A stretch of DNA of 49,857 bases. It comes from Escherichia phage PH1062. The notes under the pieces were generated by a model. The model saw only the letters and a program-made list of their open reading frames with translations. It searched no databases and was not told where the DNA came from. Where the stretch lies: the sequence record OQ680139.1. One strand, written 5' to 3'. Position numbers and translations under genes: made by a program. Positions 21,896-47,900 of the stretch are shown here, in pieces (position 1 is the first letter of the stretch; each line of letters begins with the position of its first letter).

Positions 21896-21940
21896 ACTAT
21901 ACCGCTACCCCGATTCTGAGTTTTAACAAAAAGTGCTATC
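21896..21940 (-). promoter_or_regulatory. Family promoter A: 20 bp element, 19 bp spacer, TATAGT
   Basis: Sense strand AATAGCACTTTTTGTTAAAA; -10 sits in the loop of inverted repeat GGGGTA/TACCCC; followed by CCCATCGAAACGAA. Confidence 0.55.
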
Positions 21941-22117
21941 GCCGGTGATTTCGTGCATTCTTTTTCAACACCAACCATATTTTAAAACTGAAGATTTCAG
22001 GTTTGGTGAATCGTCGCTTCCCGTACTGTCGGCAAAGGCGGCGAACTCGTCGCTTATCCATCCGAAGGTCAGTAATTATCTTTTCTGATTTGATTAGCTT
22101 CATGACTAGTCCCCTTC

Positions 22118-22264
22118 GTTTTCGTCAAACTGTTGATTGTTGATCTGTTTAATTACTTCCCTCATAACTTCTGGCCGATCTAACTGGCCGTATCGAATTT
22201 TCTTTATAGAAATCGCCTCTTTAAGCTCTGCTGCTTGCTTGTCTGACAGGTTGATAGTAATCAT
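22118..22264 (-). CDS. Small hypothetical protein (48 aa; below ORF-track cutoff)
   Basis: My translation MITINLSDKQAAELKEAISIKK...; GAGAGGAAAGCAGAATG RBS-start ~30 nt after promoter B -10. Confidence 0.4.
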
Positions 22265-22293
22265 TCTGCTTTCCTCTCGCTTGGTGTGAACTA

Positions 22294-22339
22294 ACTATAA
22301 CAAAACCCGCCGGAGCGGGTTTAGCAATTCGTGCTATTT
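22294..22339 (-). promoter_or_regulatory. Family promoter B: element, hairpin spacer, TATAGT
   Basis: AAATAGCACGAATTGCTAAA; spacer holds CCCGC-tccg-GCGGG plus TTTT; element overlaps the TAA stop of 22338..22955. Confidence 0.55.
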
Positions 22340-22955
22340 ACCAAGGAATATCATCGGCCCATTCGTCGATTGCTGGTCGGATACCGCAGGCGCGAACCAC
22401 TGCCATGACGCCGCCGTCAATATCACCATTCACCAGATGCACGTCATGCTCGTTATATTTCTTGTAATCAGGAAAATGCGATTCCTTGATGCGTATGTAA
22501 TCACGGCTATCTCCCGCGAAGTTCTTGCCATCCATGAATAGGCGGACCAGGGTAACATCGTGACCATCTTCAACGAGTCGAATCACTTCATCGGGGAATC
22601 CGCCATCAGTGCAAACAAAACAGAATCCTTCATCACACAGACGGATATGTTCGCTCATCAGCTTACCGAACTGCTGGTTGCCAAAAAGCGGCTTTACCAC
22701 TGTTTCGCTAATCCAGATCATGAACTCACGGCAGGTCTTTCCACCAAGAAAGCTCTGGGGCTGCTCTTTCTGATCGCGGTCGTCGTATGCAGTGATGAAC
22801 TTTGAGAAGGCCCTGGCCCCAAGGATGGATGCGGCAATCTCAAACATCGGACGCTTGAAGCTGGTAGGGATGCAGTTGTAATCCGCTGCGAGCGCGTTGC
22901 CGATCGTGTCTTTACCAACCGAGGCTGGACCGTTGAGAATGATAATTTTTGACAT
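22338..22955 (-). CDS. P-loop kinase, dNMP kinase / polynucleotide kinase-like
   Basis: 205 aa; N-terminal ILNGPASVGKDT Walker A with the GKDT signature. Confidence 0.5.
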   Translation of the reverse strand: MSKIIILNGPASVGKDTIGNALAADYNCIPTSFKRPMFEIAASILGARAFSKFITAYDDRDQKEQPQSFLGGKTCREFMIWISETVVKPLFGNQQFGKLMSEHIRLCDEGFCFVCTDGGFPDEVIRLVEDGHDVTLVRLFMDGKNFAGDSRDYIRIKESHFPDYKKYNEHDVHLVNGDIDGGVMAVVRACGIRPAIDEWADDIPW

Positions 22956-23075
22956 TTGTGTTAATCCTCGTTATTGTGCCGCCATGCGTATTAAGCATGA
23001 GCTTTGCGTATTTTTAGTCTACATAGTGCAGGATAATATCAACGCCCCTGCTGCTGAATTTATGTTCGTATATCG

Positions 23076-23615
23076 TCACTTATGATGCACGCCATGCGAT
23101 CCGACGCCAGCATGTAGTTTATCGCCATAGTCACACACCTGGTATGTGGTGATGCCTAGGCTTCGAAAGTGAGCGATTACGTTAGGACTGTCATCAAATG
23201 CTGCCGTAATTTGATGCAAGCCAATATACCGCAAGAACTCCTCTTTGATGATGGTATCCTTTCGGTTATCACTTGCCTGGCGCATGACCATAACGTTATA
23301 TTTTGCTCCAGCATCATGAAGCCACTGAGTAGAAATCTCACACACCTCGTCTGAACGCCCTGTTAGAATAATGATGAACGCGCCGGAGTCAAACAGGCTA
23401 TTCATTACCTGAATAGTTGACTCGATAGGCTGATCATATTCTGAAAGTCGATTGAACTCAGACCATGACTCAGTAAGGTGCAAATCCTTTGTAGGCAACT
23501 TATGCAAACGATGCGATCCGTCAGATAAAGTTCCGTCGTAATCAAACAGGTAGACTGGCTTATTGATTGCGTCTGTGTTCAAGTGGTGCTTAATCATGGC
23601 GTACATCTGATTCAT
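23076..23615 (-). CDS. HAD-superfamily phosphatase (polynucleotide 3'-phosphatase / nucleotidase-like)
   Basis: 179 aa; LFDYDGTLSDG matches HAD motif I. Confidence 0.55.
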   Translation of the reverse strand: MNQMYAMIKHHLNTDAINKPVYLFDYDGTLSDGSHRLHKLPTKDLHLTESWSEFNRLSEYDQPIESTIQVMNSLFDSGAFIIILTGRSDEVCEISTQWLHDAGAKYNVMVMRQASDNRKDTIIKEEFLRYIGLHQITAAFDDSPNVIAHFRSLGITTYQVCDYGDKLHAGVGSHGVHHK

Positions 23616-23648
23616 TGGTTAACTTCCTTTCGTGTGGTTGATGTGTGG

Positions 23649-23693
23649 ATTATACCAGTCAGGATGAATCCCCTTTTAACAAAACGTGCTATT
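23649..23693 (-). promoter_or_regulatory. Family promoter C: element, 19 bp, TGgTATAAT
   Basis: AATAGCACGTTTTGTTAAAA; extended -10; element contains the TAG stop of 23689..24432. Confidence 0.55.
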
Positions 23694-24432
23694 TAATATA
23701 GAACTGAGCCACTACTCCGTCATAAATATTTAGGGCTGCGTATGCGTCAACTAACTCGCCATTAGCATTTATTACATTACCAACTTTCAATGCTCTCCAG
23801 CGGTAATCACCTTTTAGTCCAGAGAGGAAGGCATCTTGCGTGATGTGAATGACGCTCGGTTTATGACCTGTTTCACACTCGTCTACTTCATAATCATATT
23901 CTCCACCCTTGATGAAGCCATTCCCGCCAACGTAATAGCAAACCGCCACCTTGCGATCATTCTCTGACTCGCATTCGCCTACTGACATGGTAAGCGCCTT
24001 GCCTTCACCGAAATTGCTACCGAAAGTGAACTTGGCATCTTTCGTCAGGTAATCAAACTTTGCGCCATCATCCACGATGGTCTTGCCTGGGCCAGCCGCA
24101 AGCTCATTCACGAATGCATCGACAGTGCTGTGACACGGATCGCCATTGTACTTAGGCAAATCATTGAGCAATTGCTCACATGCTTCGTGCACCAGCTTAC
24201 CTACAGTTTCTTTGATTGCCTGCTCAACATGGTCAGCGATAATCGACGGTGCAGAAATTTGATGTTTTTGAGTCGATTCTAAGGCCTTTAAGCGTGCCTG
24301 TAAGGACTCGATTTCTTTTTTATGCATTGCGTAGGATACCCATGCTCCATCGTCGCAGGATTGCATTCCGACGCCGTGAATATTGACGCTGGTTGGCACT
24401 GACACAGGGATATAACGGTTGATGCTGTTCAT
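23689..24432 (-). CDS. Hypothetical protein
   Basis: 247 aa; no motif recognised. Confidence 0.6.
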   Translation of the reverse strand: MNSINRYIPVSVPTSVNIHGVGMQSCDDGAWVSYAMHKKEIESLQARLKALESTQKHQISAPSIIADHVEQAIKETVGKLVHEACEQLLNDLPKYNGDPCHSTVDAFVNELAAGPGKTIVDDGAKFDYLTKDAKFTFGSNFGEGKALTMSVGECESENDRKVAVCYYVGGNGFIKGGEYDYEVDECETGHKPSVIHITQDAFLSGLKGDYRWRALKVGNVINANGELVDAYAALNIYDGVVAQFYIK

Positions 24433-24473
24433 ATGTGATTCCTCAGTTGGTTTGTGTTCACTTGACAGGAGAC

Positions 24474-24518
24474 ACTATAGCTAATGTCTCCGAGCAAGTT
24501 TTAACAAAAAGTGCTATT
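24474..24518 (-). promoter_or_regulatory. Family promoter D: element, 19 bp, TATAGT
   Basis: AATAGCACTTTTTGTTAAAA; -10 in loop of GGAGACA/TGTCTCC; element encodes the last codons NSTFC and stop of 24501..24731. Confidence 0.55.
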
Positions 24519-24731: not shown

Positions 24732-24918
24732 TTTTTAACCCCTTAACCTGACATGCTGTTCCTGTTCGGATGGCTGTTACTAAAAGAGTGAACACTGTAG
24801 CCTGGCTTATAGCCTTAAGCCATCGACCATGTTTTGGGTAGTAGACGTATCCAGTTCCACACGATACGGCGTACCATAAGCTACCTCGTCTGAAAACTAT
24901 TGGCTTCAACGGAATCAT
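24715..24918 (-). CDS. Hypothetical protein
   Basis: 67 aa ORF overlapping both neighbours at start/stop. Confidence 0.3.
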   Translation of the reverse strand: MIPLKPIVFRRGSLWYAVSCGTGYVYYPKHGRWLKAISQATVFTLLVTAIRTGTACQVKGLKNASLH

Positions 24919-25304
24919 AAGTAACCCTTCCCTACAGTTTCTCCAACTTCACGTGATGCCTTTAACTTGTTCCAGAAATCGAACGGGCCGACTGGCTCCC
25001 ATGCTTTCGGTTTGCCTGGCTCATTCCACCAACCGAGAACTGCCGCACTGCCGTAGCATGAATCCATCTGGCGACCGTCGCTGAAATAGCTTTTGAATAC
25101 GCGATTCAGTTCATCACCGCCAACCTTGATTGAGTTAGCTTGAGACTCAATTCCATATTTCTTCTCTAACTCCGTAGGCTCATCAATGAACCCCTCCACA
25201 ACGATCGGGTAAGAACCAGGATCGCGTGGGTTAGTCTCTTTCGGATGGAGCTTGAAGTATTCAAGCTCGGCATAGATGCTAGGGTTAAGTAAACGTACTT
25301 TCAT
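24915..25304 (-). CDS. Hypothetical protein
   Basis: 129 aa; ~43 nt after promoter E -10. Confidence 0.6.
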   Translation of the reverse strand: MKVRLLNPSIYAELEYFKLHPKETNPRDPGSYPIVVEGFIDEPTELEKKYGIESQANSIKVGGDELNRVFKSYFSDGRQMDSCYGSAAVLGWWNEPGKPKAWEPVGPFDFWNKLKASREVGETVGKGYL

Positions 25305-25347
25305 TTGTTAATCCTCTGTGATTGGTTATCTCTGCTTCAATAAGTCC

Positions 25348-25393
25348 ACTATATCAAATGGACTTGCGGAAGGTTTAGCAATTCGTGCTATTT
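25348..25393 (-). promoter_or_regulatory. Family promoter E: element, 20 bp, TATAGT
   Basis: AAATAGCACGAATTGCTAAA; -10 in loop of AAGTCCA/TGGACTT. Confidence 0.55.
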
Positions 25394-25701: not shown

Positions 25702-25897
25702 TGTGGCGCTCCATGTAGTCAGCCATTTTGATAAGGTGCTCACCCATTGCTCGGACAGTAGCCGGATCTTGCATTGGGAATGCTCCAGAGTCGTCGTCAA
25801 TAACGATTTCGACAGTGACGTTATCGCTATTGGTCATCGTGTCAATCCAGCAATCGTCATCGTCCATATCCTGGAAGCGCTTGCGATCGGTAATCAT
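25691..25897 (-). CDS. Small acidic protein, paralog family member 5 (most divergent)
   Basis: 68 aa; C-terminal PATVRAMGEHLIKMADYMERH aligns with the family motif. Confidence 0.5.
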   Translation of the reverse strand: MITDRKRFQDMDDDDCWIDTMTNSDNVTVEIVIDDDSGAFPMQDPATVRAMGEHLIKMADYMERHNEQ

Positions 25898-26118
25898 AAA
25901 ACCCCCTTCTCAGCGCGGTGGGCCGCTTCCATCAGGTGACACGCCAGTTGGCGCGCCTGGTCTGGCGTGTACAGCATGTAAGTGCTTGGGTATGATTCTT
26001 CGTGAGGATTGAAGTCAAGGCGCACCTTGAAAGTCACACGATCATTGCTGTGAATCTTCACAGCCTCAATTTCGGCCTGCTCGTTGTAGTCGTCTGCAAT
26101 GCGCACTTTAGTGCTCAT
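25894..26118 (-). CDS. Small acidic protein, paralog family member 4
   Basis: 74 aa; VRLDFNPHEESYPSTYMLYTPDQARQLACHLMEAAHRAE. Confidence 0.6.
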   Translation of the reverse strand: MSTKVRIADDYNEQAEIEAVKIHSNDRVTFKVRLDFNPHEESYPSTYMLYTPDQARQLACHLMEAAHRAEKGVL

Positions 26119-26157
26119 AAATTACCCCTTAGTTGATTGTTTCACTTCAATGAGTGC

Positions 26158-26202
26158 ACTATAGCAAATGCACTCACGGCAGTTTTAACAAAAAGTGCTA
26201 TT
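26158..26202 (-). promoter_or_regulatory. Family promoter F: element, 19 bp, TATAGT
   Basis: AATAGCACTTTTTGTTAAAA; -10 in loop of TGAGTGCA/TGCACTCA; element contains the TAG stop of 26198..26398. Confidence 0.55.
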
Positions 26203-26708: not shown

Positions 26709-26930
26709 CTACTCATCTGATTCTGCCTCCACTTCCTCAGCCGCCAGGATTAGCGCCGCCGCCAGCTCGCGAGCCTGCTCAGCTGTGTAGGCCATTGCAG
26801 TTCCACCACCATAACGAGAATCTGGTGAAAGGTCCAGGTGAACACGCTTACGCATCTTGCCGAATGGAATCTTAATCACGGATACTTCAGTTTCCTTATC
26901 CCAAGATGAATTGACTCGAATATCTTTCAT
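26709..26930 (-). CDS. Small acidic protein, paralog family member 2
   Basis: 73 aa; VHLDLSPDSRYGGGTAMAYTAEQARELAAALILAAEEVE. Confidence 0.6.
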   Translation of the reverse strand: MKDIRVNSSWDKETEVSVIKIPFGKMRKRVHLDLSPDSRYGGGTAMAYTAEQARELAAALILAAEEVEAESDE

Positions 26931-27139
26931 TGCTTTTCCGCCTCGTCCGCTGCCAGGATTAATGCTGCCGCTAATTTTCTAGCCGCGTCAGGTGAGTATT
27001 GCATCAGTGTCTGGCAATCTCCGTATTCGTCAGGATTGAAGTCTAGGTTAACAACATGCCCGCGAACGGTTCCCATCGTGACGCTGACCTCTGCTTGGTC
27101 AAAGTGAACATCGTCAATACGTACAGCTTCCATAATCAT
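26927..27139 (-). CDS. Small acidic protein, paralog family member 1 (start moved to internal Met)
   Basis: VNLDFNPDEYGDCQTLMQYSPDAARKLAAALILAADEAE; track start 27187 lies inside promoter G, so Met at MIMEAV with AAGAGG RBS is more likely. Confidence 0.55.
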   Translation of the reverse strand: MIMEAVRIDDVHFDQAEVSVTMGTVRGHVVNLDFNPDEYGDCQTLMQYSPDAARKLAAALILAADEAEKQ

Positions 27140-27163
27140 TTCCTCTTTGTTGTCGATATGGTA

Positions 27164-27208
27164 ATCATAGCTGACTACCCCACCCATTGTTTAACAATTC
27201 GTGCTATT
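27164..27208 (-). promoter_or_regulatory. Family promoter G: element, 20 bp, TATGAT
   Basis: AATAGCACGAATTGTTAAA variant. Confidence 0.5.
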
Positions 27209-27398
27209 TGATTCGTCTCATATGCTGCGTTCGGTGTTTTTCCAGATAATCACACCGAGCTTTGGCTATAGAAAAATCACTATACGAACTATCAGTTGAT
27301 GAATGAGTTATGCCAGAAATCATAACTTGAAAAACTCCCTTTAATTGCATCACCCAAAAATCACCATTTTCATATGCTATGTTTGATTTTTTTAACAT
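27204..27398 (-). CDS. Hypothetical protein (start moved to internal Met)
   Basis: Track start (GTG 27458) lies inside promoter H; Met at MLKKSNIAYENGDFW is downstream of the -10. Confidence 0.4.
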   Translation of the reverse strand: MLKKSNIAYENGDFWVMQLKGVFQVMISGITHSSTDSSYSDFSIAKARCDYLEKHRTQHMRRIK

Positions 27399-27435
27399 TT
27401 TATCCACCAATCCAATTCTTGTTTTCGATGTTGTA

Positions 27436-27481
27436 ATTATACCGATTCCTTGCGGCACTGGTTTAGCAATTCGTGCTATTG
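27436..27481 (-). promoter_or_regulatory. Family promoter H: element, 20 bp, TATAAT
   Basis: AATAGCACGAATTGCTAAA; element encodes NSTNC and stop of 27463..27690. Confidence 0.55.
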
Positions 27482-27690
27482 CGAACGATTTCGAATTTAG
27501 CCATTATGACGCCAAGGCTTTTTATCATAAGAGCTTCACCTATCGTCTTCACTATGTACTCATTGCCATCAACCTTGATGTAGTATGAGCCATTAAAGCG
27601 AGTGATTGGCTTAGCCTTGTATATCCCACCATTCACGACTGAAAGGTTGTGGTGATTGGCTTGCCTTACATACACACATTTTATAAGCAT
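27463..27690 (-). CDS. Hypothetical protein
   Basis: 75 aa ending ...NSTNC. Confidence 0.5.
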   Translation of the reverse strand: MLIKCVYVRQANHHNLSVVNGGIYKAKPITRFNGSYYIKVDGNEYIVKTIGEALMIKSLGVIMAKFEIVRNSTNC

Positions 27691-28256
27691 TAATGCTCAC
27701 CATTCAGGAGAGATTTCGCTTTCCGGTAGAACTGGATGGCCTTCTCCACCTCATCGGCATCATAGCCATGAATCATGTCTGAGCTTGCCTGCAATTTGCT
27801 ATGAGATTTGCGCTCAACCGATCTCCATGAGTCGCACCACTTGTGAATGTCTCTCCCATACATGCCCACCAGGTATGGGTGTGCATATATCTTGTCACCA
27901 ATAAGGCAAATGATTCCAGCGTCCTGTAGTGATGGTAGGATGTTGTCAATCAGGTTATTCATTACTCCATTACGCTCGACGAACGGCTGGACCTTTCTGA
28001 TCGCCTCATATGTTGAGCGAACTCCCACAACGCCTTTTCCATTTATCGCTTGCTTCCAGATATTTTCAACCACGACGCATTGTTCACGATTTAGGTTTGC
28101 GCGACGCATAACTTCTACTTCGCACCAGTACTTTTGTGACTGTCGGTATCCGTTAGCATTGATTGCAATTCGTAGTGGTGGAAGCCCATCTTCCGTAGCA
28201 ATCTTCATAATCTGCTCATCTGTCAGCTTCTCTTCGTTAAAATCAAACATCCCCAT
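27690..28256 (-). CDS. Short paralog of the 30528..32111 NTPase (shares its N- and C-terminal domains, lacks the P-loop core)
   Basis: N-terminus MGMFDFNEEKLTDEQIMKIATEDGLPPLRIAINANGYRQSQ and segment INGKGVVGVRSTYEAIRKVQPF...LIGDKIYAHPYLVG match both ends of the 527 aa protein. Confidence 0.6.
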   Translation of the reverse strand: MGMFDFNEEKLTDEQIMKIATEDGLPPLRIAINANGYRQSQKYWCEVEVMRRANLNREQCVVVENIWKQAINGKGVVGVRSTYEAIRKVQPFVERNGVMNNLIDNILPSLQDAGIICLIGDKIYAHPYLVGMYGRDIHKWCDSWRSVERKSHSKLQASSDMIHGYDADEVEKAIQFYRKAKSLLNGEH

Positions 28257-28777
28257 TATTTCGTCTCCCTAATCATTTCCTGGTACATTTTGATTGCCTT
28301 GATGGCTCCTGTAATCTCATCGCCTTCAAACTCAGTCACGGATGGCATCAGCTTGAGTATTTTGACCTTAAAGTCGCTCACGGCCTTCTCTGCAATCTGG
28401 CCGTTTGCCTTCACTCGCTTTCCTGTCTGGATTGCGCCATCAACCAAAGACAGATAAGCACAACGAACCTCTACGTCATCACCGAAATCACCATCCTTAA
28501 TTGAAAGTTTTGCACGAACGTTTGCCGCCTGTATCTCTGGCATCCTGGCTACCGTATTGGCGACATATGACGCCTTCAGCTTTGACATGCTGTATCTGCC
28601 ACCTACATCCAGATCCTCACGACTTATGCCTCCCATATCACTAGATGTGAGGCCGTAAACCTGGCGAGCTATTAGATGGATTGGGACGTGGTAGCTGCGG
28701 TTCTCGGACTTGAGCGCTTGCTCCGCCATGTAGCGGACGACATCGCCCAGGCTTACGTGTTGATTATGATTTGACAT
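28256..28777 (-). CDS. Hypothetical protein, first gene of the leftward operon
   Basis: 173 aa; first ORF downstream of the sigma70-like promoter at 28820-28848. Confidence 0.6.
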   Translation of the reverse strand: MSNHNQHVSLGDVVRYMAEQALKSENRSYHVPIHLIARQVYGLTSSDMGGISREDLDVGGRYSMSKLKASYVANTVARMPEIQAANVRAKLSIKDGDFGDDVEVRCAYLSLVDGAIQTGKRVKANGQIAEKAVSDFKVKILKLMPSVTEFEGDEITGAIKAIKMYQEMIRETK

Positions 28778-28819
28778 AGATATTACTCCTGATTGGTGGT
28801 CTTCGTTAAGATGGGTGCA

Positions 28820-28848
28820 ATACTACCAGTGTGGTTACATGTTATCAA
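28820..28848 (-). promoter_or_regulatory. Sigma70-like early promoter TTGATA-17-TAGTAT (leftward)
   Basis: Hexamers at 17 bp spacing ~45 nt upstream of 28777; spacer carries GTGGTTACATGT, also found at 47464-47475. Confidence 0.5.
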
Positions 28849-29068
28849 GTGTTATTGATGCAAGTGTTCGACTTAGTTACGTTTTGCGACCTCTCGCCCC
28901 AGATATAGCTCAATGTAAAGTCTGCGTATAGTTTGTAGATAAGTATTTTTAGCAAATGGGCCCCTACATGACCTTTTATTCCTACAATGTCGTCATATTC
29001 CTACAGGTGTAGGAAAATATCATAGAAAACTATCGCAATATCACATATCCACTATCTACATTATCTAC

Positions 29069-29145
29069 ATATATATATATTAATAATAATAATATAGATA
29101 AATGGTTATTATATAAGGATATTTTAATGTAACCATGGCGTAATT
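29069..29145. repeat. AT-rich conserved block, copy 1
   Basis: (AT)n, AATAATAATAA, GATATTTTAATGTAAC and GCGTAA in the same order as at 47687-47757. Confidence 0.7.
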
Positions 29146-29410
29146 CAGCGTGATATGCGTACATGATTCCTACGGAGTGCTGGTGTGTCTACATGGCATA
29201 ACATGCATAACGCGTATGCGCTAGAAACGTGTGGCGGGAAAGTCCTACCAGGAGATCAAGGGATCAGATCTCACCCCATCATTCCCCCCATCAATGAATC
29301 ATTGCTCAATTCGCAACAATCGAAAACATCATTGCAAACGATGCAATATTGCTATATGTGCAATAGTGAAGTGAATTATTGCAATAGCTGCAACAATCCA
29401 TAAATCGAAC

Positions 29411-29456
29411 GAATAGCACTTTTTGCTAAAGACATAAATCATCATTCTGGTAATAT
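29411..29456 (+). promoter_or_regulatory. Family promoter I (rightward): element, 20 bp, TAATAT
   Basis: GAATAGCACTTTTTGCTAAA on the plus strand; first rightward-oriented copy after the AT-rich region. Confidence 0.5.
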
Positions 29457-29642
29457 GTATCTCAAGGAAGCAGTGAAGCGAACGCCAAGTAGCTACTTCC
29501 CAGAAGTCGAATCGTCCAGATGAAAAATGCTGGCGAGTGTTGAGAAAGGGCACGTTGAGTCACTTCCGAACAGGTAAACTCCTAGACACCTTCTCCGGCA
29601 GCAAAGTCTGACCGGGTTCTTCGAAAAAGCAGTGAAGGTATT

Positions 29643-29688
29643 GAATAGCACGAAATGTTAAAACAGAAGTGAAGAAAGCAGGTATAGT
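29643..29688 (+). promoter_or_regulatory. Family promoter I2 (rightward): element, 20 bp, TATAGT
   Basis: GAATAGCACGAAATGTTAAAA; 126 nt upstream of 29815. Confidence 0.5.
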
Positions 29689-29814
29689 CAGTACATAGAG
29701 AACGGGGTGGGAAGTAAAGAGCCGAACGGCCTCCTGATGGAACAGGATAACCACTAAAGCAGAGATGACATCAAAGCGAACCTCTAGCAAAGCACAGTAA
29801 ACCATTGACGAGAG

Positions 29815-30039
29815 ATGAAAATGAACCAGGATCTTAATAAAATTGCTTTCAACAATACCATCGCTGACATTGCTGCCAAGGTAGATCTATCCCGCAATCC
29901 CGTTAAGCAGATCGCTTCTGAGTGTGAGTTCTTCGCATCGCAGATTGAAGGTGACGAATACAAGAGAGTGTTTGCAGCCCTAAGTAAATGCAAAACACGC
30001 AAAGCAATGAGTATAATCATCAATAGCACGAATTGCTAA
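29815..30039 (+). CDS. Hypothetical protein
   Basis: 74 aa ending ...NSTNC, the last five codons being the family element. Confidence 0.5.
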   Translation: MKMNQDLNKIAFNNTIADIAAKVDLSRNPVKQIASECEFFASQIEGDEYKRVFAALSKCKTRKAMSIIINSTNC

Positions 30040-30066
30040 AGCCCTTCGGGGCTTTTCCTGTATATT
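30022..30066 (+). promoter_or_regulatory. Family promoter J (rightward): element, terminator-like hairpin spacer, TATATT
   Basis: AATAGCACGAATTGCTAAA; spacer GCCC-ttcg-GGGC plus TTTT; followed by CATCCCATCGAAACGAA; 36 nt to ATG 30103. Confidence 0.55.
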
Positions 30067-30102
30067 CATCCCATCGAAACGAAACACAAAAAGGCAAACA
30101 AA

Positions 30103-30456
30103 ATGACTACTACTATTACTAGAAACTGGATTAGCAACGAAAATGTACTCTATAAAGCTCGCGTTAAAAATGGCGTAGAGCAAATCAAGAAAGATGGAAA
30201 ATGGATTAACCTTGAAGAGCGCGGCAAGTACATCAAGACAAAGACCATTTACTGCACAAAGGTTAATCATCGCTCATCCATTCGTAAGTACTTCACTGAA
30301 GGGAAGCGATATCAAGTGGATCTCCATGCTGGACTTGGGCAGCGCGCTGGATACATTTACGATAAGGAGGGCAGCGCATGGCAGCTATATCGTGACGAAG
30401 ATGTTGGGTTTGTATCACTGTGTGGAACTTATCGCTGGGAAGCTCAGTACAAATAA
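30103..30456 (+). CDS. Hypothetical protein
   Basis: 117 aa. Confidence 0.6.
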   Translation: MTTTITRNWISNENVLYKARVKNGVEQIKKDGKWINLEERGKYIKTKTIYCTKVNHRSSIRKYFTEGKRYQVDLHAGLGQRAGYIYDKEGSAWQLYRDEDVGFVSLCGTYRWEAQYK

Positions 30457-36032: not shown

Positions 36033-36062
36033 GATGATTCCTCGTCTCGTTGGTATGAAAGA

Positions 36063-37337: not shown

Positions 37338-37376
37338 TTTGATTTCCTTGGTTGGTTACTTCGTTTCGATGAAGTG

Positions 37377-37421
37377 ATAATACATCACCTCACCGATTCG
37401 TCTTTAGCAATTCGTGCTATT
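37377..37421 (-). promoter_or_regulatory. Family promoter M: element, 20 bp, TATTAT
   Basis: AATAGCACGAATTGCTAAA encodes NSTNC and stop of 37404..37832; followed by CTTCATCGAAACGAAGT. Confidence 0.55.
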
Positions 37422-39931: not shown

Positions 39932-39968
39932 AGTATTAAATGCCTTTCATGTTCGTTCGATTGACGTT

Positions 39969-40012
39969 ATAATAACAACCATCGAAACCAATGTTTAACA
40001 AAAAGTGCTATT
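39969..40012 (-). promoter_or_regulatory. Family promoter N: element, 18 bp, TATTAT, upstream of helicase operon
   Basis: AATAGCACTTTTTGTTAAAC; lies in the divergent region between helicase and 40024..40497. Confidence 0.5.
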
Positions 40013-40023: not shown

Positions 40024-40497
40024 ATGAATGCAACTGATAAGCGTACTCTTAACGGTAACAACGGAACTATCCGCACGGAAGATAAGAAGCAGCGTAAGCG
40101 ACCGTCAGGTTACTATGTTCTCAAGGATGAAGTAAAGGCCGGATTAAGAGCGCGACTTGATATTGTATTTGAGTTCTACGGCAGCAAGGCGAATATGGCG
40201 AAGCAATTAAAAGTTACTCGCCAGGCGGTCGAAGAATGGTTTAAGCGTGGCATGATGTCGGCACGCGGCGCTCAACTGGCGCACAACAGATATAAGCGAA
40301 CTGGCGAAGGGTTCCGCGCTACATTCTGCCGACCGGATTTGCAATTCGACGGCAACGGTAAACCGCTGACACTGCGTTGCAAAAAGCGTCACATGCTGCG
40401 CGTCGTCACCGAGGCTGAACTAGCCACTAAGCCTGAATGTCGCTCATGGCGAAAAATTAAAGCAGCAAACGAAGCAGCACGAAAAGCTAAAGAATGA
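40024..40497 (+). CDS. Cro/YdaS-like helix-turn-helix DNA-binding protein (putative regulator)
   Basis: 157 aa; YGSKANMAKQLKVTRQAVEEWFKRGMMSARGAQLAH resembles Cro/YdaS HTH; basic termini. Confidence 0.5.
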   Translation: MNATDKRTLNGNNGTIRTEDKKQRKRPSGYYVLKDEVKAGLRARLDIVFEFYGSKANMAKQLKVTRQAVEEWFKRGMMSARGAQLAHNRYKRTGEGFRATFCRPDLQFDGNGKPLTLRCKKRHMLRVVTEAELATKPECRSWRKIKAANEAARKAKE

Positions 40498-40528: not shown

Positions 40529-41077
40529 CTATCTATCTCCGTCACACCCAAACTCACCATGATAATAATTACTGGCTTTTAAGTACGCTTCACGCGCCGA
40601 CTCCTTTGTGGTATGCCTTCCTAGCCATATTTTTTTATTATTAACCCATATCCACGCCGTGTACTTCCCTGTTTGCTTGCAGAATCCAACGCCTTTTACT
40701 CCTGATGTATTGTGAGATGGTTTTTTCATATTTCTATTGTTCTCAGATGATGACGCTTCCCTTAGGTTTTCTATCCTATTATCAGTCCTGATCCCGTTTT
40801 TATGATCTATATACTTAGAAGGCCATTCACCTTTACAAAGCGCCCATGAAACCCTATGGCATTTAACGTCGAATCCGAAAAATCTGAAAACCTTATAACC
40901 AGATTTATGGACCGTTCCGGCCTCATCTCCAGCCTTAACCCTATTAGATGTGCTTTTTACCCAAATTATAACTCCGTTGTCGTATTTAAGGTAATTCCTA
41001 AGCATATCAATACTAATCAATGACTCTTTTGCCTTCATTAAATCAAAGTCTTTGCTCATTTCATTTTCCTCATTCAT
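40529..41077 (-). CDS. HNH homing endonuclease with AP2-type domain (start may be Met at ~41059)
   Basis: YIDHKNGIRTDNRIENLREASSSEN then SGVKGVGFCKQTGKYTAWI; minus-strand gene inside a plus-strand block. Confidence 0.75.
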   Translation of the reverse strand: MNEENEMSKDFDLMKAKESLISIDMLRNYLKYDNGVIIWVKSTSNRVKAGDEAGTVHKSGYKVFRFFGFDVKCHRVSWALCKGEWPSKYIDHKNGIRTDNRIENLREASSSENNRNMKKPSHNTSGVKGVGFCKQTGKYTAWIWVNNKKIWLGRHTTKESAREAYLKASNYYHGEFGCDGDR

Positions 41078-42110: not shown

Positions 42111-42130
42111 TTTAGCAATTCGTGCTATTT
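42111..42130 (-). promoter_or_regulatory. Family element in reverse orientation at the tail fibre promoter (operator-like position)
   Basis: TTTAGCAATTCGTGCTATTT on the plus strand between two plus-strand genes; ends 19 nt before ATG 42149. Confidence 0.45.
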
Positions 42131-42148
42131 ACTTAAGGAGTTTATATT

Positions 42149-44758
42149 ATGGCTTTATACAGACGCGGTACAGCATCAATGGATGCAGACGGAACGGTTC
42201 ACGGAACCGATACAAAATGGAACGATCAGCTTGCTCTGATTCGCGTAGGTGCAACTATCGTATTCCTGGAGCAACCAATTAAGCTGGCGGTAATCAGCGA
42301 TATTGTGAGCGACACAGAGCTAAAGGCTATCTCTACGGATGGTCAGACTGCCGCTGACGGAAAGTATGTAATCTTGCTTAACGATTCATTGACCGTTAAC
42401 GGGCTTGCGCAAAACGTTGCTGAGACGCTTCGGTACTACCAGAGCAAAGAGACCGAGATTGCTGGGGCAATGGATATCATTGCGAGTCTGGATATGGATA
42501 ACCTTAACCGTATCATTGAGGAAATTAAGGCGAACAAATCAGCCGCAGAATCTGCGCAGAATCAAGCGGAGCTTGCTCGCGACGCATCCGCTGCAAACCG
42601 TGATGCCGCAAGTCAATTTGCAACATCGGCAGAGCAAAGCAAGAATGCAGCAAAGACCAGTGAGACGAACGCCAACAACGCAAAGACCGACGCAGAGACA
42701 GCTAAATCACAGGCAGTAACTGCTAAAGACCAGGCTAAAGTATTTCGTGACGAGGCAGAGCAACTCGCAAATGGTGCCGATGCATCAAATAAGGTTGATA
42801 AAGTTGGGTCCGCTATCAACACCCCAACCAGCGTTGCTGACATGCTAAAAAGATTGCGAGACACGATAAAGGGTGGATTCTGGCGAGTTGATGATATAAG
42901 TCAGTTTCCATCCGGGCAAATGGCCCCGTTCAGATACGGTTCAGGGATTTGCGGCGGCGCTGGTGACACATTTTTTGCGTTTAACGTTGACTGGCAGTCC
43001 TCTAGCGTAAAGGTTTTCTCGGGAAACAATGACGCTATCAACGGAGAGTCTGGATATATTAGCTCTATTGAGCTGGCTAAACTTGGTACAAATGGGGACT
43101 TGGCGATCGCGGACGGCGGGACGGGAGCATCTAACGACCAGGGGGCGCGCGCCAACCTTCAGGCGATGCACGAGCGTCAAGCACCGTTGTTAAGCGAAGA
43201 CCTTAACGTATTAAAAGGGGATAAGGCTGGATTTTATTACACTAACATAAGTGCGAACGCGACCACGGATAAAAACTACCCAGTAGGCAAGGCTGGATGC
43301 CTTCTGGTCCAGAAAACTGGAGCTAACGACCCAAAAAGCTGCGTACAGACCTACACCGAATATAACAGCGGGCGAAGATTCATGCGGTGGATCTCGAATG
43401 GCGCGACAGACACCTGGTCGAACTGGTACGAACTGTATAACTCTGGGTCGTCGCCGACTTTTAATGGTAAAGTGACGGTGCCGCAGGTTGCGGTTGGCAC
43501 GGCTACTCTGCGGCCGGTAACTCCCGGAGAAGGAAGCGGAGACGGGGTTGTTTGGGAATCCAGCAACGCCACGGAGGCGAGTTTTGGCATTGCGAATGTT
43601 GGCGGCGGGTCTGCGGTGTTCCACAACTATTCAAAACCAGCAAACGGGTCTGGCGTGGCTACCGGAGTGCTTATTGGTGGGTACGGGTCGCGCCCGTGGA
43701 CTGGTACTACATATACGGACCACTCAAACGTGTCGCAGCACTTCCTCATGGACGGGACCGCTTCGGATACTAACCACGGCGGCTGGTTTAGGTTGCTAAC
43801 AACCCCATTGAATAAGACCAATGCAGATCGTAGGCAAACATTCGCGACCAGCAACAACGGCGACCTTTATATAGGTTTCGATGTACCTATGGGGCTTTAT
43901 AAGATAACGCAGGAAAGTTACAACGGATTGGAAATATTAAACGGTCGCGGTCTTAAACAAGTAAATAACACAGCTAATGAAATAGCCTTAATCACCCCAC
44001 GAAACGGGGCAACAGCTAATATAAATTTCAGAGGTGTAGCTTTTAATGGCTCAATGACCGGAGTTAAAGGTGCCACTCAGCAGGGAGACAACTTGTGGCT
44101 GTCTTTTGCAGGGCATGACGGTGTAAGATTCACGGGTGCCGCTGCCGGTATGCGGATTCAGGCGTCGACTGGATGGTCAGCCACAAACACGCAATGCGGA
44201 ATAACGTTTGCGACAACGAAAGCAGGGTCCACGCAGAGGGTGGATCGGTGGAGCATTACGAGCGACGGGTCGCTGTCCCCAGCTGCGGACAACGCATACC
44301 CGATCGGCAGTGCAGTCTCCCGTGTTAGTGCGGTCTACGCAGCAAACGGGGCCATACAGACCTCGGACGCAAGACTCAAGACCGAGGTTAGGGGTTTAAC
44401 AGAGGAGGAGATGGGCGCCGCTAAAGCAATCGCCCGCGAGTTTGGCTTTTTCCGGTGGCTTGAGAGAGTAGCCGAAGAGGGCGACGATGCGAGGCTCCAT
44501 GCAGGTATTACCGTGCAGAAAGTGATGGAAATCATGCGGTCTTACGGTCTGGACCCCTTGAAGTATGGATTCGTGTGTTACGACGAATGGGAGGAGACTT
44601 CAGAGGTTATCAGTGACCCCGATGATAATTCGAAGTCGACGATCAATATAACCCCCGCAGGCAATAGATATAGCTTGCGATATTCGGAACTAAACGTGTT
44701 TATCGCCAGAGGACTTGAGCAAAGAATCTCAGAACTGGAGGCTAAGTTAGCTGGTTGA
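42149..44758 (+). CDS. Side tail fibre with C-terminal intramolecular chaperone (peptidase S74) domain
   Basis: 869 aa; Ala-rich coiled-coil repeats; autoproteolysis-type motif SDARLK followed by HAGITVQKV...YSLRYSELNVFIARGLEQRISELEAKL. Confidence 0.75.
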   Translation: MALYRRGTASMDADGTVHGTDTKWNDQLALIRVGATIVFLEQPIKLAVISDIVSDTELKAISTDGQTAADGKYVILLNDSLTVNGLAQNVAETLRYYQSKETEIAGAMDIIASLDMDNLNRIIEEIKANKSAAESAQNQAELARDASAANRDAASQFATSAEQSKNAAKTSETNANNAKTDAETAKSQAVTAKDQAKVFRDEAEQLANGADASNKVDKVGSAINTPTSVADMLKRLRDTIKGGFWRVDDISQFPSGQMAPFRYGSGICGGAGDTFFAFNVDWQSSSVKVFSGNNDAINGESGYISSIELAKLGTNGDLAIADGGTGASNDQGARANLQAMHERQAPLLSEDLNVLKGDKAGFYYTNISANATTDKNYPVGKAGCLLVQKTGANDPKSCVQTYTEYNSGRRFMRWISNGATDTWSNWYELYNSGSSPTFNGKVTVPQVAVGTATLRPVTPGEGSGDGVVWESSNATEASFGIANVGGGSAVFHNYSKPANGSGVATGVLIGGYGSRPWTGTTYTDHSNVSQHFLMDGTASDTNHGGWFRLLTTPLNKTNADRRQTFATSNNGDLYIGFDVPMGLYKITQESYNGLEILNGRGLKQVNNTANEIALITPRNGATANINFRGVAFNGSMTGVKGATQQGDNLWLSFAGHDGVRFTGAAAGMRIQASTGWSATNTQCGITFATTKAGSTQRVDRWSITSDGSLSPAADNAYPIGSAVSRVSAVYAANGAIQTSDARLKTEVRGLTEEEMGAAKAIAREFGFFRWLERVAEEGDDARLHAGITVQKVMEIMRSYGLDPLKYGFVCYDEWEETSEVISDPDDNSKSTINITPAGNRYSLRYSELNVFIARGLEQRISELEAKLAG

Positions 44759-45115: not shown

Positions 45116-45589
45116 TCAGAATGGAATATCATCGTCGAACTGATTTTGCTGCTGTGGTGACTGATTTGGTTGCTGATTCTGGCGTTGTTGCTTCTGTTTC
45201 TGAGGATGCTGTTGCTGCTGTCGTTGCTGGCCTTGATTCTGCTGCTGCGCAGACTCACGCTGGCTGAATTGAAGTTGAGGCCGGATCATTTCAGCAGTAA
45301 CGTAAACAGTCCCGTCATTACCTTGGCGAGAAGATAAGTGAAGTGTATCGGCAGAAATTGAAACAACATTCCCTTCCTGGAACGCCTCATCATACCACTG
45401 CATGACATTTTCTTTTGCGAAGAATGTAGCGCGGTAGTTACTGTAAACCGTCTCATCCTCGCCCTGCTGATTGCGAATCTTCATGCGTTCTGACAGTTCA
45501 ACGGCGTACATTTTCCAACGACCGTTGTTGTTGCTGCCTTCTTTGGTGTATGGCGCTTTGCGGATCTGACCAGTGATTACGTGTGGCAT
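45116..45589 (-). CDS. ssb: Single-stranded DNA-binding protein
   Basis: 157 aa; Gln-rich linker and acidic C-terminal tip DDDIPF. Confidence 0.85.
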   Translation of the reverse strand: MPHVITGQIRKAPYTKEGSNNNGRWKMYAVELSERMKIRNQQGEDETVYSNYRATFFAKENVMQWYDEAFQEGNVVSISADTLHLSSRQGNDGTVYVTAEMIRPQLQFSQRESAQQQNQGQQRQQQQHPQKQKQQRQNQQPNQSPQQQNQFDDDIPF

Positions 45590-45627: not shown

Positions 45628-46284
45628 TTAGAATTGTTCGATGGATTCAGATTGTACAGGTTCGGGCGGTGCATTTGCAACCTTGTCTTCAACCTTTTGA
45701 GTATCGGCCTTTTTCGCTGGCTGGAAACCGCGAGCGTTACCGATACTCAGTTCAGCCTTGCGCTTCTGCAAGTGGTCTTCTGCAATCTTCCATTCCGCCG
45801 CGCCAAGTGAACCTTTCGCGCTCTTATAGATAACCTGGAGGTCTTCCAGTTTTTCACAGTTGGCGATAAGTTTTTTGTAGTCCGCTGCCGTTCGCTTCGC
45901 AATTTCTGCATCGTCATCGCTCTGAGTGATTCCAAGCGCTGCGCACAATGCGTAACGGCGACCGTATGATGTTGTTGAGCCGTAAGCCTGGGCGCTAATC
46001 TTCTCGATCGGCATGTTGTACTGGAACGCAAGCCACTCACCGGAGCTGTGAAGGATGAGTGTTTCAATATGCATTACCTTTTCTGTTGACGTGTCCAGAT
46101 TTGACTGGATAACCATAAGGTCATGCTCTTTTAGTGCTGGCTCTACGGCCTCCAGAACGTCCGTCAGGTTTGAGTAATGGTTTTTCAGGTGAGTGTTGAA
46201 GCCTGATTTTTTTGCGATTGCAAACTGCTTTTTAGCTGCAATTAGAGCGGCTGAAACATTCGAAAACTTCTCTGATGTACGCAT
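45628..46284 (-). CDS. erf: Erf-family single-strand annealing protein
   Basis: 218 aa; N-terminal pattern typical of Erf as I recall it; adjacent to ssb and exonuclease. Confidence 0.6.
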   Translation of the reverse strand: MRTSEKFSNVSAALIAAKKQFAIAKKSGFNTHLKNHYSNLTDVLEAVEPALKEHDLMVIQSNLDTSTEKVMHIETLILHSSGEWLAFQYNMPIEKISAQAYGSTTSYGRRYALCAALGITQSDDDAEIAKRTAADYKKLIANCEKLEDLQVIYKSAKGSLGAAEWKIAEDHLQKRKAELSIGNARGFQPAKKADTQKVEDKVANAPPEPVQSESIEQF

Positions 46285-46321
46285 TATATATACCTTTGTT
46301 TACTTCGTTTGATTTACGGTG

Positions 46322-46365
46322 ATTATAGCAAATCACCGCATTCTTGTTTAGCAAAAAGTGCTACG
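46322..46365 (-). promoter_or_regulatory. Family promoter P: element, 19 bp, TATAAT
   Basis: CGTAGCACTTTTTGCTAAA variant; overlaps TAG stop of the exonuclease gene; followed by ATCAAACGAAGTAAAC. Confidence 0.5.
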
Positions 46366-47416
46366 CTTCCAGGATGTGCTTGAACTGCTTTTTAATCCAA
46401 TCAGGAGTCTCAAGCTCAATCTCTGGTTCGCCGTTGCTGTATGAAGGCCATACGTCATTCGCTTCGCACATTGAGAAAGTATGAATAACGCTCATGTACT
46501 GCGCACGACCAATCTTAAGCTGATCGCTACTCATGCGGTAAGCCATAGGAAAGTAAGGCTCTTTCTTCTCCTGGGCCAGCAAGCGCACAACCACAGGTCG
46601 CGTTTCCTCAAAGCATTTAACGAACAGGTCACGCTGCAATGCCATCTTGAGGTAATATCCAAGGTTGAACGCCAGGCGCGGGAACTCGGTCGGGTTGGCG
46701 CTCATTGTCGTTTTGTAATCAGTGATGACGACGATTTCAGGGTGAATCTCAGGATCGTAACCCATGCGCCGGATGGCTTCTGGATCATTAATGATGTCAA
46801 CATGGTCAAGTCGCACCTTGACTTTAACGCCACAGATTACGCCGAACAAAGAATACTCACGGAATGCCGTTTCGCTGTTCATGCAAGCGTTATGCTCAGG
46901 AATCATTTCAAGAACCTGGCGCATACTGACGCAAGCGTCGTAGTCTTCCGCCTTAACCAGTTCCACGCCATCTGCCCACGCCTGACATTGTGCGATCATA
47001 TCAATCAGCCACATGACGTTGAGGTCTTCGCCGCAATCAACCATCATCTTGATCAGTTCTGGATATTGCTTGCCGCTTGTACCAGTCAGGCCAAATGATT
47101 TTAATTTCGTTGCCAATGCCGCCTGGCTAGTGATTACGTTTTCAATCTCGCTATCTTTCGGTGCGCGGCGATACTTGCGTTCAAACAGTGCCTTACTCTC
47201 GAAATTGGTATGCGACTGCGTACCGAAGACAAGTGCCTTAGTCGTCGAGTTCATTTCAAACTTCCACGCCGCAGGGCAAGTACTGTGGATCTTGCTGAGT
47301 GACGATCCTGATACGTACTTGGCGGTCCATTCGTCTTTGCTGTGATAGAAATCGTTGCTCATTTCTTCTGACGTGAAATATTGAAAAAGTGGCTTAGTCA
47401 TCTCTTTAATCCTCAT
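46361..47416 (-). CDS. PD-(D/E)xK family exonuclease (RecE / lambda-Exo-like partner of Erf)
   Basis: 351 aa; IVVITDYKTT fits the D-x(n)-(D/E)-x-K core. Confidence 0.5.
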   Translation of the reverse strand: MRIKEMTKPLFQYFTSEEMSNDFYHSKDEWTAKYVSGSSLSKIHSTCPAAWKFEMNSTTKALVFGTQSHTNFESKALFERKYRRAPKDSEIENVITSQAALATKLKSFGLTGTSGKQYPELIKMMVDCGEDLNVMWLIDMIAQCQAWADGVELVKAEDYDACVSMRQVLEMIPEHNACMNSETAFREYSLFGVICGVKVKVRLDHVDIINDPEAIRRMGYDPEIHPEIVVITDYKTTMSANPTEFPRLAFNLGYYLKMALQRDLFVKCFEETRPVVVRLLAQEKKEPYFPMAYRMSSDQLKIGRAQYMSVIHTFSMCEANDVWPSYSNGEPEIELETPDWIKKQFKHILEA

Positions 47417-47434
47417 TTGTTGTTGATGTGGGTA

Positions 47435-47462
47435 ACTATACGCGCTTGGTTGCCTTAGTCAA
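47435..47462 (-). promoter_or_regulatory. Sigma70-like early promoter TTGACT-16-TATAGT (leftward)
   Basis: Hexamers just upstream of 47416; GTGGTTACATGT abuts the -35. Confidence 0.5.
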
Positions 47463-47686
47463 GTGGTTACATGTAGATATTTGTAATCACGTGTATGCAA
47501 TGGCGTTAGTTACATAAAATGGCTATCCAGCCCAGCTATGGCTTGATGTAAACATCGTGTATATCGTGTATACCACTTTTCGCGGATGGTGCATTAGTGT
47601 ATGCGTGATTAGATACTGTATAAATATACATATTAGAAATTTATAAGCGGAATACTCTATAGAAGTAGTTACACGATATACACAGT

Positions 47687-47757
47687 AATATATATATAAT
47701 AATAATAAGAGTAAAAGGTTGATATATATAGATATTTTAATGTAACTAATGCGTAAA
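47687..47757. repeat. AT-rich conserved block, copy 2
   Basis: Same sub-motifs and order as copy 1 at 29069-29145. Confidence 0.7.
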
Positions 47758-47855
47758 TCTGCGTAACAGCGCGTATATCATTTTCAGCGGAAGAGATTGT
47801 ATACATCGAGTTACATCGGTTACGTGTATATCGTTGCATTTGCATACTTGACACC

Positions 47856-47900
47856 AAAAAGCACGAATTGCTAAAACTCAATTAATGGTTGGTGTATAGT
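47856..47900 (+). promoter_or_regulatory. Family promoter Q (rightward): element, 18 bp, TATAGT
   Basis: AAAAGCACGAATTGCTAAAA; followed by CACTCAATCGAAACGAA. Confidence 0.5.

Follow-up and report, generated by a model that had tools for sequence, protein, structure and literature searches.

Within the genome that TLS, a phage, carries, a 21-nt direct repeat, aaATAGCACnnnTTGnTAAAA, occurs in 21 copies, 18 of which (DR1-18) are intergenic (PMC11447400, 2024). These repeats are oriented with transcription, lie ~76 nt upstream of start codons and fall into GAA, TTT and AAA subgroups, with repeats of the same type also having been noted in phages T1, Rtp and Rogue1 (PMC11447400). Only three sigma70-like promoters were recognized in TLS, and the authors proposed that the repeats serve as stoperators, enhancer sites or UP elements, while listing their function as an open question; neither a linked -10 hexamer nor identity with a marbox nor a function was reported (PMC11447400). 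The present study addresses the corresponding element in a 49,857-nt stretch of DNA from Escherichia phage PH1062 (record OQ680139.1; this whole stretch is hereafter termed the window), a T1-like member of the Drexlerviridae. Given its consensus, aaATAGCACnnnTTGnTAAAA, its orientation and the 73-88 nt that separate its 5' end from the ATG, the element of the window falls within the definition of the TLS repeat. As such, an earlier proposal made from the letters of the DNA alone (the sequence-only reading), namely that the element marks a promoter class that had not been described, does not stand, the repeat having been published for TLS, albeit without linkage to a -10 or a function. The repeat itself is thus already known, but no paper found in the searchable literature recognizes it as a marbox in class II geometry.

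Marboxes, also termed soxboxes or robboxes, conform to the consensus AYNGCACNNWNNRYYAAAYN, in which RE1 is GCAC and RE2 is YAAA (PMC2064960), with GCAHWWWWTGYYAAA having been published as an alternative consensus (PMC6900184). In a class II mar/sox/rob promoter, a forward marbox overlaps the -35 region and is centred between -36 and -55 (PMC12052159; PMC6900184). RamA sits at ~-41 on micF, the sense strand of which reads CACT-7N-AAA (PMC8811837). In the cryo-electron microscopy structure of Rob and RNA polymerase on micF, the A site is contacted by Rob at G-47 and A-45, and the B site (CAAA) overlaps the -35, from which sigma region 4 is displaced by Rob, which touches both the C-terminal domain of the alpha subunit (alpha-CTD) and sigma region 4 (PMC9178005). 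Published A-box mutations lower the affinity of Rob 7-100-fold.

Judged by its sequence, the repeat is the marbox/soxbox/robbox of the host. All 17 modules of the window, each comprising a copy of the element and a -10 hexamer, fit the marbox 20-mer AYNGCACNNWNNRYYAAAYN with 0-2 mismatches, seven of them perfectly. Sites with no more than one mismatch number 19 in the window vs. 0.65 in shuffled sequences, and none was found in lambda or in 50 kb of Escherichia coli K-12. The comparison genomes were those of T1, TH21, a Braunvirinae phage, a Webervirus, an Enterobacter phage, a Hanrivervirus and Vc1 (a Jhansiroadvirus recorded on Vibrio), with the window and the first six of these, that is, excluding Vc1, yielding the set of 140 element copies and 119 modules considered below. 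On the gene strand, phage copies read CAC(G/T)-7N-AAA, and the forward orientation, with GCAC distal and AAA proximal to the -10, was seen in 17/17 modules of the window and in 119/119 modules of the seven genomes. The modal spacing between the marbox 20-mer and the hexamer, found in 99 of these 119 modules, is 18 bp, identical to the spacing measured in K-12 for micF (ACAGCACTGAATGTCAAAAC, 18 bp, TAGAAT), inaA (ACGACACGTTTCATTAAGAT, 18 bp, TATAGT) and nfo (ATCGCATAAACCACTACATC, 18 bp, TATCAT); the fumC site was ambiguous, at 17 bp. When the hexamer is numbered -12 to -7, the phage G and A at -47 and -45 occupy the very coordinates contacted by Rob on micF. The -35 position holds TAAA(A/C)C or variable sequence, and the best "-35" calls of a promoter scanner were TAAACA, made of the 3' end of the marbox. 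At the level of sequence, the modules thus combine an asymmetric marbox, forward orientation, a fixed overlap with the -35 region and a weak or absent -35, as in class II promoters. Accordingly, the class is not phage-specific, as the sequence-only reading had tentatively proposed, but rather presents a host marbox with the geometry of micF, inaA and nfo.

The pattern AATAGCACKWWTTGYTAAA has 13 exact matches in the window and 0 in 100 shuffled sequences (0.00 expected), with 21 copies being found at up to three mismatches, as compared to 0.23 expected in shuffles. All 17 sites of the original list were recovered to within 1 nt, and four more were added: an exact one at 42111(-), which has no gene downstream, and diverged ones at 12824(+), 16797(-) and 2915(-). 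As the sequence-only reading had anticipated, neither shuffled nor host sequence matched the window in this respect, with 0-1 composite modules being detected in lambda and in one 50-kb sample of E. coli K-12. At the 17 copies, a -10-like hexamer (TATAGT, TATAAT, TATTAT, TATATT, TATGAT, TATACT or TAATAT) lies 20 bp from the end of the 19-mer in 13 cases, 19 bp in three and 21 bp in one, confirming the proposed fixed distance, while the order on the strand concerned is element, hexamer, purine-rich ribosome-binding site and start codon. The stated agreement in orientation with the downstream gene was found at 17/17 copies. It had also been claimed that a ribosome-binding site and a gene follow each copy, which is so for most, the plus-strand copies at 29412 and 29644 instead preceding a stretch without an open reading frame (ORF) or an ORF found only ~120 nt on. 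Similarly, confinement of the copies to the non-structural half is approximate, since the added copies at 12824(+), 16797(-) and 2915(-) lie in the structural half. The internal TTGYTA, earlier deemed too distant for a -35, indeed lies 22 bp from the -10; with no other -10 at 16-18 bp, it was rejected as a -35. The earlier description of composite promoters, consisting of an oriented upstream element and a -10 with no usable -35, and with the element centred near -42, as expected of a class II activator site, hence holds.

The nearest records to the window, with ~85-92% identity across some two thirds of the region used as the query, are P817, p111 and TH21 (genus Nouzillyvirus). Of the 140 copies in the seven genomes, 119 are followed at 19-21 bp by a hexamer whose second base is A and whose sixth is T, the distance being exactly 20 bp in 99 cases. 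Each genome, with several genera being represented, contains 15-20 composite modules. In the resulting profile, the near-invariant A-50 T-49 A-48 G-47 C-46 A-45 C-44 precedes a centre (-42/-41) of A/T only, near-invariant T-40 T-39 G-38, a degenerate -37 (C 55, T 39) and near-invariant T-36 A-35 A-34 A-33. The spacer from -30 to -15 holds little information, G-14 is present in 82/99 modules and T-15 in 42%, and the start region reads C-1, A+1, then TCGAAACGAA. The near-invariant GCAC and TAAA, together with the A/T-rich centre and the degenerate -37, fit the RE1/RE2 layout. The sequence-only reading had assigned the element to a dimeric activator on the dyad TAGCA-N5-TGCTA. As a conserved unit, this dyad was rejected, the partner of the invariant G-47 being C in only 55% of cases and the conserved positions -51, -50, -44, -40, -34 and -33 breaking the symmetry; such asymmetric conservation instead fits the two-element site of a monomeric AraC/XylS protein. 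In terms of sequence, the dyad is a pseudo-dyad (GCA...TGY) inherent to the marbox. A scan of IMG/VR with the exact module returned at least 120 stretches; the 80 matches listed are on contigs of 31-53 kb, mostly T1-sized, and among the matches listed there is no evidence for use of the module by other phage families. Vibrio phage Vc1 (MT360682.2), the eighth genome, contains 15 copies of the element, several with weaker -10 hexamers (CAAAAT, CAATAA), and only nine composite modules.

The reading favoured here, to which a probability of roughly 60% is given, is that ~17 promoters of the class II marbox type stand at the head of the early and non-structural transcription units and are activated by host Rob, MarA or SoxS. 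A marbox would be bound, as a 20-bp asymmetric site, by a monomer of the AraC/XylS-type proteins MarA, SoxS or Rob (or RamA in Klebsiella, Enterobacter and Salmonella), and its forward placement 18 bp upstream of the -10 would create a -35-less sigma70 promoter of class II. By analogy with micF, the host activator would sit on RE1 (GCAC, -47 to -44) and RE2 (TAAA, -36 to -33), replace the contact between sigma region 4 and the -35, and recruit RNA polymerase via the alpha-CTD and sigma region 4, with the near-consensus -10 (G-14 in 82%) supplying the remainder. Because Rob is constitutively present and abundant, it could switch these promoters on as soon as the DNA has entered, without the need for a phage protein. 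Marbox identity would also account for the puzzle posed by TLS, with its three sigma70-like promoters and 18 unexplained repeats. Binding and activation by MarA, SoxS or Rob, as well as the start sites, are what we infer from position and sequence. In the searchable literature, no paper linking marboxes to phage promoters or to the Drexlerviridae was found (the T1 genome paper of 2004 and the Rtp genome paper of 2006 being outside its scope), nor was any mapping of transcription start sites in a T1-like or other Drexlerviridae phage.

Several points weigh against activation by these host proteins. Binding, start sites and activation at these promoters are all predictions. In the absence of inducers, Rob is mostly inactive, while unstressed cells contain little MarA or SoxS. 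A Keio collection screen with the T1-like phage LL5 yielded eight required host genes, with rob, marA and soxS going unmentioned. No single paralogue among the three appears to be essential, an outcome that could be explained by redundancy of the three activators or by basal activity of the G-14 extended -10. Class II activation by the MarA family has, moreover, been reported to be modest, at ~2-4 fold for RamA (PMC8811837). The modules are also present in Vc1, which is recorded as infecting Vibrio cholerae. As a test of host range, Vc1 was set aside, as it carries the same modules and hence has no discriminating power. Finally, a phage protein of convergent specificity but no sequence similarity to the host activators is conceivable.

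Indeed, an activator encoded by the phage itself and working from the class II position, be it a dimer of the Cro-like product of 40024-40497 on the dyad or some other early protein, is the foremost alternative, albeit an unlikely one. The ORF at 40024-40497(+) encodes a 157-residue transcriptional regulator (phrog_2856), a homologue of T1 gp23, that is conserved in 824 phage records. The gene is divergent from, and back-to-back with, the marbox promoter of a helicase gene, and the predicted 5' untranslated region of the regulator transcript would cross that marbox, which suggests autoregulation. The 5-bp dyad is, furthermore, present in about half of the copies, and immediate-early expression could come from sigma70-like promoter candidates located at 28848(-), 47462(-) and 41121(-). 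Against this stand the imperfection of the dyad (C at -37 in 55%, with G-47 invariant), the asymmetry of the strongest conservation outside it, where a Mor/C-like phage activator would call for a symmetric site, and the match at all specified marbox positions, an unlikely coincidence for an unrelated protein. The regulator, which the sequence-only reading had named as a binder, comprises a basic N-terminal arm and a single helix-turn-helix of the Cro type; its structural model (pLDDT 85) has all-alpha Cro proteins as its only relatives, with no structural match to MarA, Rob or AraC. The regulator is kept as a candidate rival binder that is not MarA-like and for which no sign of cognate specificity was seen. 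Nor do the other two proteins earlier suggested as binders, encoded by 28256-28777 (DUF7174) and 27690-28256, present a DNA-binding signature, and PDB sequence searches with them came back empty. A phage-encoded MarA-like protein was rejected, given that phmmer --max searches of the six-frame ORFs from seven Drexlerviridae genomes, for which E. coli MarA, SoxS and Rob served as queries, returned no homologue (best E 0.29) and that the sole annotated regulator is Cro-like. With no MarA/SoxS/Rob homologue, a Cro-like regulator and two further proteins without DNA-binding signatures, host Rob, MarA and SoxS (RamA in Klebsiella) are therefore favoured. Likewise, no homologue of MotA or AsiA was detected in a scan of ~30 proteins (10 compared with Pfam and 30 with PHROGs). 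As a separate observation, the early protein encoded by 27690-28256(-) (188 residues, phrog_7327) and the C-terminus of the helicase encoded by 30528-32111(+) (phrog_2373) match each other's families, which at the sequence level suggests a shared or duplicated domain.

It is also possible, if quite improbable, that no activator is needed, with the extended near-consensus -10 sufficing and the element being a UP-like enhancer, a decoy for MarA, SoxS and Rob, or simply inherited cassette sequence. The frequency of G-14 (82/99 modules) and T-15 (42%) would be in keeping with this, as would the absence of any reported rob, marA or soxS requirement in the LL5 screen and the suggestion of UP or enhancer elements by the TLS authors (PMC11447400). 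UP elements, however, are A/T tracts contacted by the alpha-CTD (-57 to -38, with no invariant G/C), whereas G-47, C-46, C-44 and G-38 of the phage profile are invariant. A decoy would need no fixed distance to the -10, whereas spacing is held to within +/-1 bp and orientation is strict in 119 modules across divergent genera, pointing to a stereospecific contact between a bound protein and RNA polymerase.

The 17 modules are as follows, with marbox, -10 and +1 being predictions from the sequence and the target being the gene downstream on the same strand. The module at 21889-21939(-) contains a marbox at 21920-21939 (ATAGCACTTTTTGTTAAAAC), TATAGT at 21896-21901 and a predicted +1 at 21889, and faces the gene at 21653-21865, encoding a phrog_5684 protein. 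At 22287-22337(-), a perfect consensus marbox (22318-22337) is followed by a spacer with a GC hairpin plus T-run, TATAGT at 22294-22299 and a predicted +1 at 22287, ahead of the gene at 22106-22264. The polynucleotide kinase gene at 23076-23615 is preceded by the module at 23642-23692(-) (TATAAT at 23649-23654). The next three minus-strand modules each hold TATAGT between inverted arms, namely, at 24467-24517 (24474-24479, between GGAGACA and TGTCTCC; target 23689-24432), at 25341-25391 (perfect marbox; 25348-25353, between AAGTCCA and TGGACTT; target 24915-25304) and at 26151-26201 (26158-26163, between GAGTGCA and TGCACTC; target 25894-26118). Perfect marboxes are also found at 27157-27207(-) (TATGAT at 27164-27169; target 26927-27133) and 27429-27479(-) (TATAAT at 27436-27441; target 27204-27398). 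On the plus strand, the module at 29413-29463 (TAATAT at 29451-29456) precedes ~170 nt without a convincing ORF, that at 29645-29695 (TATAGT at 29683-29688) has a ~120-nt leader to the ORF at 29815-30039, and that at 30023-30073 (GC hairpin in the spacer; TATATT at 30061-30066) serves 30103-30456 and the helicase gene at 30528-32111. The ORF-poor stretches after the 29412 and 29644 promoters (29464-29640 and 29696-29812) show no excess of RNA folding (z of 0.75 and 0.52, respectively) and no Rfam match, and could represent leaders, very small ORFs or the remains of decayed genes; no known RNA family or tRNA was found anywhere in the window.

Returning to the minus strand, the module at 34042-34093, with 21-bp spacing, a GC hairpin in the spacer and TATATT at 34049-34054, lies ahead of 33848-34021 and the lysis genes (endolysin, 33015-33500). 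At 36056-36106, a perfect marbox, a GC hairpin in the spacer and TATACT at 36063-36068 precede 35799-36032 and a DNA repair exonuclease gene (34093-35235), while the module at 37370-37420 (TATTAT at 37377-37382) precedes 37065-37337 and a DNA methyltransferase gene (36335-37063). The helicase gene at 37829-39931 is the target of the module at 39962-40011 (perfect marbox; TATTAT at 39969-39974), and the Erf gene (45628-46284) and SSB gene (45116-45589) are those of the module at 46315-46364 (TATAAT at 46322-46327, between CGGTGA and TCACCG). The last module, at 47858-47907(+) (TATAGT at 47895-47900), faces a lipoprotein gene (47940-48182). Upstream of the helicase gene, two divergent -10s overlap by 5 bp at 39968-39974, TATTAT (-) being directed at the helicase gene and TATAAT (39968-39973, +) at the regulator gene, with TATTATA being present in the corresponding module of 6/8 genomes. 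At least 11 upstream ORFs stop inside the element, using its TAG (19-mer positions 3-5) or TAA (positions 16-18), as at copies 21922, 23675, 24500, 26184, 27190, 27462, 30022, 37403, 46347 and others, such that gene ends and the activator site of the next promoter share bases.

Beyond the marbox, the modules are rich in inverted repeats. A perfect stem of at least 5 bp flanks the -10 in 54/119 modules, as compared to 13% in an arm-swap control, with a mean stem length around the -10 of 4.66 vs. 3.53 +/- 0.08 in that control. In the commonest arrangement, a 5' arm at -24 to -18 and a 3' arm at -7 to -1, ending exactly at the predicted start, enclose a 10-nt loop with G-14 and TATAG. The 44 distinct arm sequences covary clearly (pair -20:-5 being TA in nine, CG in six, GC in four and AT in two), and in the window such repeats include those of modules 24467-24517, 25341-25391, 26151-26201 and 46315-46364. 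The micF, inaA and nfo promoters of E. coli have no hairpin flanking the -10. In 18 further modules, a GC hairpin resembling an intrinsic terminator lies wholly within the spacer; in the window, GC hairpins with a T-run leading into the -10 are seen at 22303-22322, 30040-30057, 36066-36087 and 34055-34075. These 20-bp spacer hairpins are terminator-like structures placed inside a promoter, and the most economical guess would be that 3'-end structures of the upstream transcript have come to be housed in the sequence-free class II spacer. An initial transcribed sequence, A-TCGAAACGAA, is conserved at +1 to +11 of most modules (e.g., 21879-21889 and 30073-30083), with CATTGAAG forming a subfamily. 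The conserved start region, CATCGAAACGAA, also occurs at 39980-39988(+), after the marbox-less TATAAT (39968-39973) facing the regulator gene, and thus travels with the -10 and start site, and not with the marbox.

Such accompanying features raise the idea that the modules are mobile promoter/stem-loop cassettes, conserved through recombination-mediated shuffling of genes and not through regulation. The PeSLs of T4-type phages offer a precedent, the modules bound small and variable early genes, upstream ORFs terminate within the element, the promoter comes with hairpins and a conserved leader, and the content of the early region is patchy among relatives. Mobility is, however, compatible with promoter function and leaves the presence of a marbox at class II distance unexplained, and as a replacement for regulation it is given little credence.

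Four copies of the element fall outside class II geometry, each overlapping a sigma70-like promoter located after a terminator. The inverted copy at 12824-12842(+) lies in the spacer of a minus-strand promoter, TTGCGC-16-TGcTATTAT, of the major capsid gene (11818-12771), with like copies in similar sequence context being found in T1, TH21, KLPN2, BHUENT2, A143 and Vc1. At 16797-16815(-), a diverged forward copy ends 6 bp before TATAAT and is followed by a terminator-like hairpin, upstream of the gene at 15482-16756 (portal by synteny with T1). The forward copy at 2915-2933(-), ATCGCACGAAAGGCTAAAC, fits the marbox consensus, spans approximately +6 to +25 of a TTGCGC-17-TATAAT promoter and covers the ribosome-binding site of a large tail gene. 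Finally, the exact copy at 42111-42129(-) has an orientation opposite to that of the tail fibre gene (42149-44758) and covers approximately -1 to +18 of the TTGCAA-17-TGaTAAAAT promoter of this gene. In a genome screen for MarA, marboxes at -35 to +25, in either orientation, comprised the class overlapping core promoters (PMC12052159). From the positions of the four copies, we infer repression at these late promoters, such that the same factor would activate early and repress late promoters. That such repression is instead the general function of the element, with a repressor on stoperator-like sites blocking transcription of the early region, is very improbable. In its favour are the oriented, intergenic and repeated arrangement of the sites, to which the TLS authors drew attention (PMC11447400), and the repression that binding at the four late core promoters would cause; against it are the location at -51 to -32 upstream of a -35-less -10, an activating and not a roadblock position, and the virulence of the phage, with no repressor or integrase seen among the proteins scanned. 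Stoperators of the L5 type are sites for a repressor inside the transcription units of a temperate phage, which itself encodes that repressor; the sites of the window are oriented and intergenic, but locked to a downstream -10.

A further-reaching version of host activation is offered tentatively, as being possible although doubtful. Here, T1-like phages would hand almost all early transcription to host Rob, MarA, SoxS or RamA, while late genes would be held until ~20 sites per genome titrate the factor, in effect an activator-titration clock. If true, late genes would be delayed by the marboxes that overlap the promoters for capsid, portal, tail and tail fibre, replication would drive the early-to-late switch, and bile salts, fatty acids, salicylate, oxidants or antibiotics, through their action on the host, would adjust how fast infection proceeds.

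Two other features of the region can be mentioned. The segment at 28778-29411 is a gene-free divergent region of 634 bp with a very AT-rich tract at ~29060-29130, tatatatatattaataataataatatag; its place is that of the junction between the two early arms, where the genome ends of T1 lie, and it could be a region of the pac or ori type. In addition, an HNH-AP2 homing-endonuclease gene, 40529-41077(-), forms an insertion that separates the regulator gene from the primase gene, the two being neighbours in T1, and has its own sigma70-like promoter, TTGACT-18-TGnTATGAT, at 41121-41092.

Recognition of the repeat as a marbox gives a specific and cheaply testable answer to the published question on the T1-like repeat (PMC11447400). 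Should activation by the host proteins prove true, the early programme of a virulent phage family would, in a clear case, be wired to the antibiotic- and stress-response regulon of the host. It would also bear on the use of Drexlerviridae in phage therapy (Klebsiella weberviruses, as well as E. coli and Shigella phages) alongside antibiotics or in the bile-rich gut, and on how mar, ram or sox resistance mutations alter susceptibility to phage, and would supply engineering with a set of compact promoters tunable through an activator.

As to how the modules compare with described systems, middle promoters of T4 combine a -10 with a substitute upstream box, the MotA box, that contains TGCT, and depend on sigma appropriation by AsiA. 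The phage modules likewise pair a -10 with a substitute box containing TGCT, but differ in that the MotA box is centred at -30, as compared to -42 for the element. The Mu middle and late promoters (Mor/C) and lambda PRM and pRE (cI at -42, cII) are also -35-deficient sigma70 promoters, and rely on an activator positioned around -42; in those cases, however, the activators are phage-encoded oligomers on dyads or direct repeats, whereas here the site is the marbox of a host monomer and no such phage protein was found. The four late-region copies resemble core-promoter marboxes repressed by MarA in being located in the spacer, at the start site or in the early transcribed region, with the difference that repression of the phage promoters is deduced from position. 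With the TLS repeat, the modules share the element itself, the orientation rule, the distance to the start codon (73-88 nt here, ~76 nt in TLS) and the GAA and TTT subgroups, while the linked -10 and the marbox identity were found here and not in the TLS study (PMC11447400). Finally, like the class II promoters micF, inaA, nfo and fumC of E. coli, the modules present a 20-bp asymmetric forward marbox that overlaps the -35, lies 18 bp from the -10 and places GCAC at -47 to -44. They differ from these in belonging to the genome of a virulent phage, at ~17 copies per 50 kb, in lying nearer to the consensus than do the host sites examined, and in adding a covarying hairpin at the -10, terminator-like hairpins in the spacer and the conserved CATCGAAACGAA start region.

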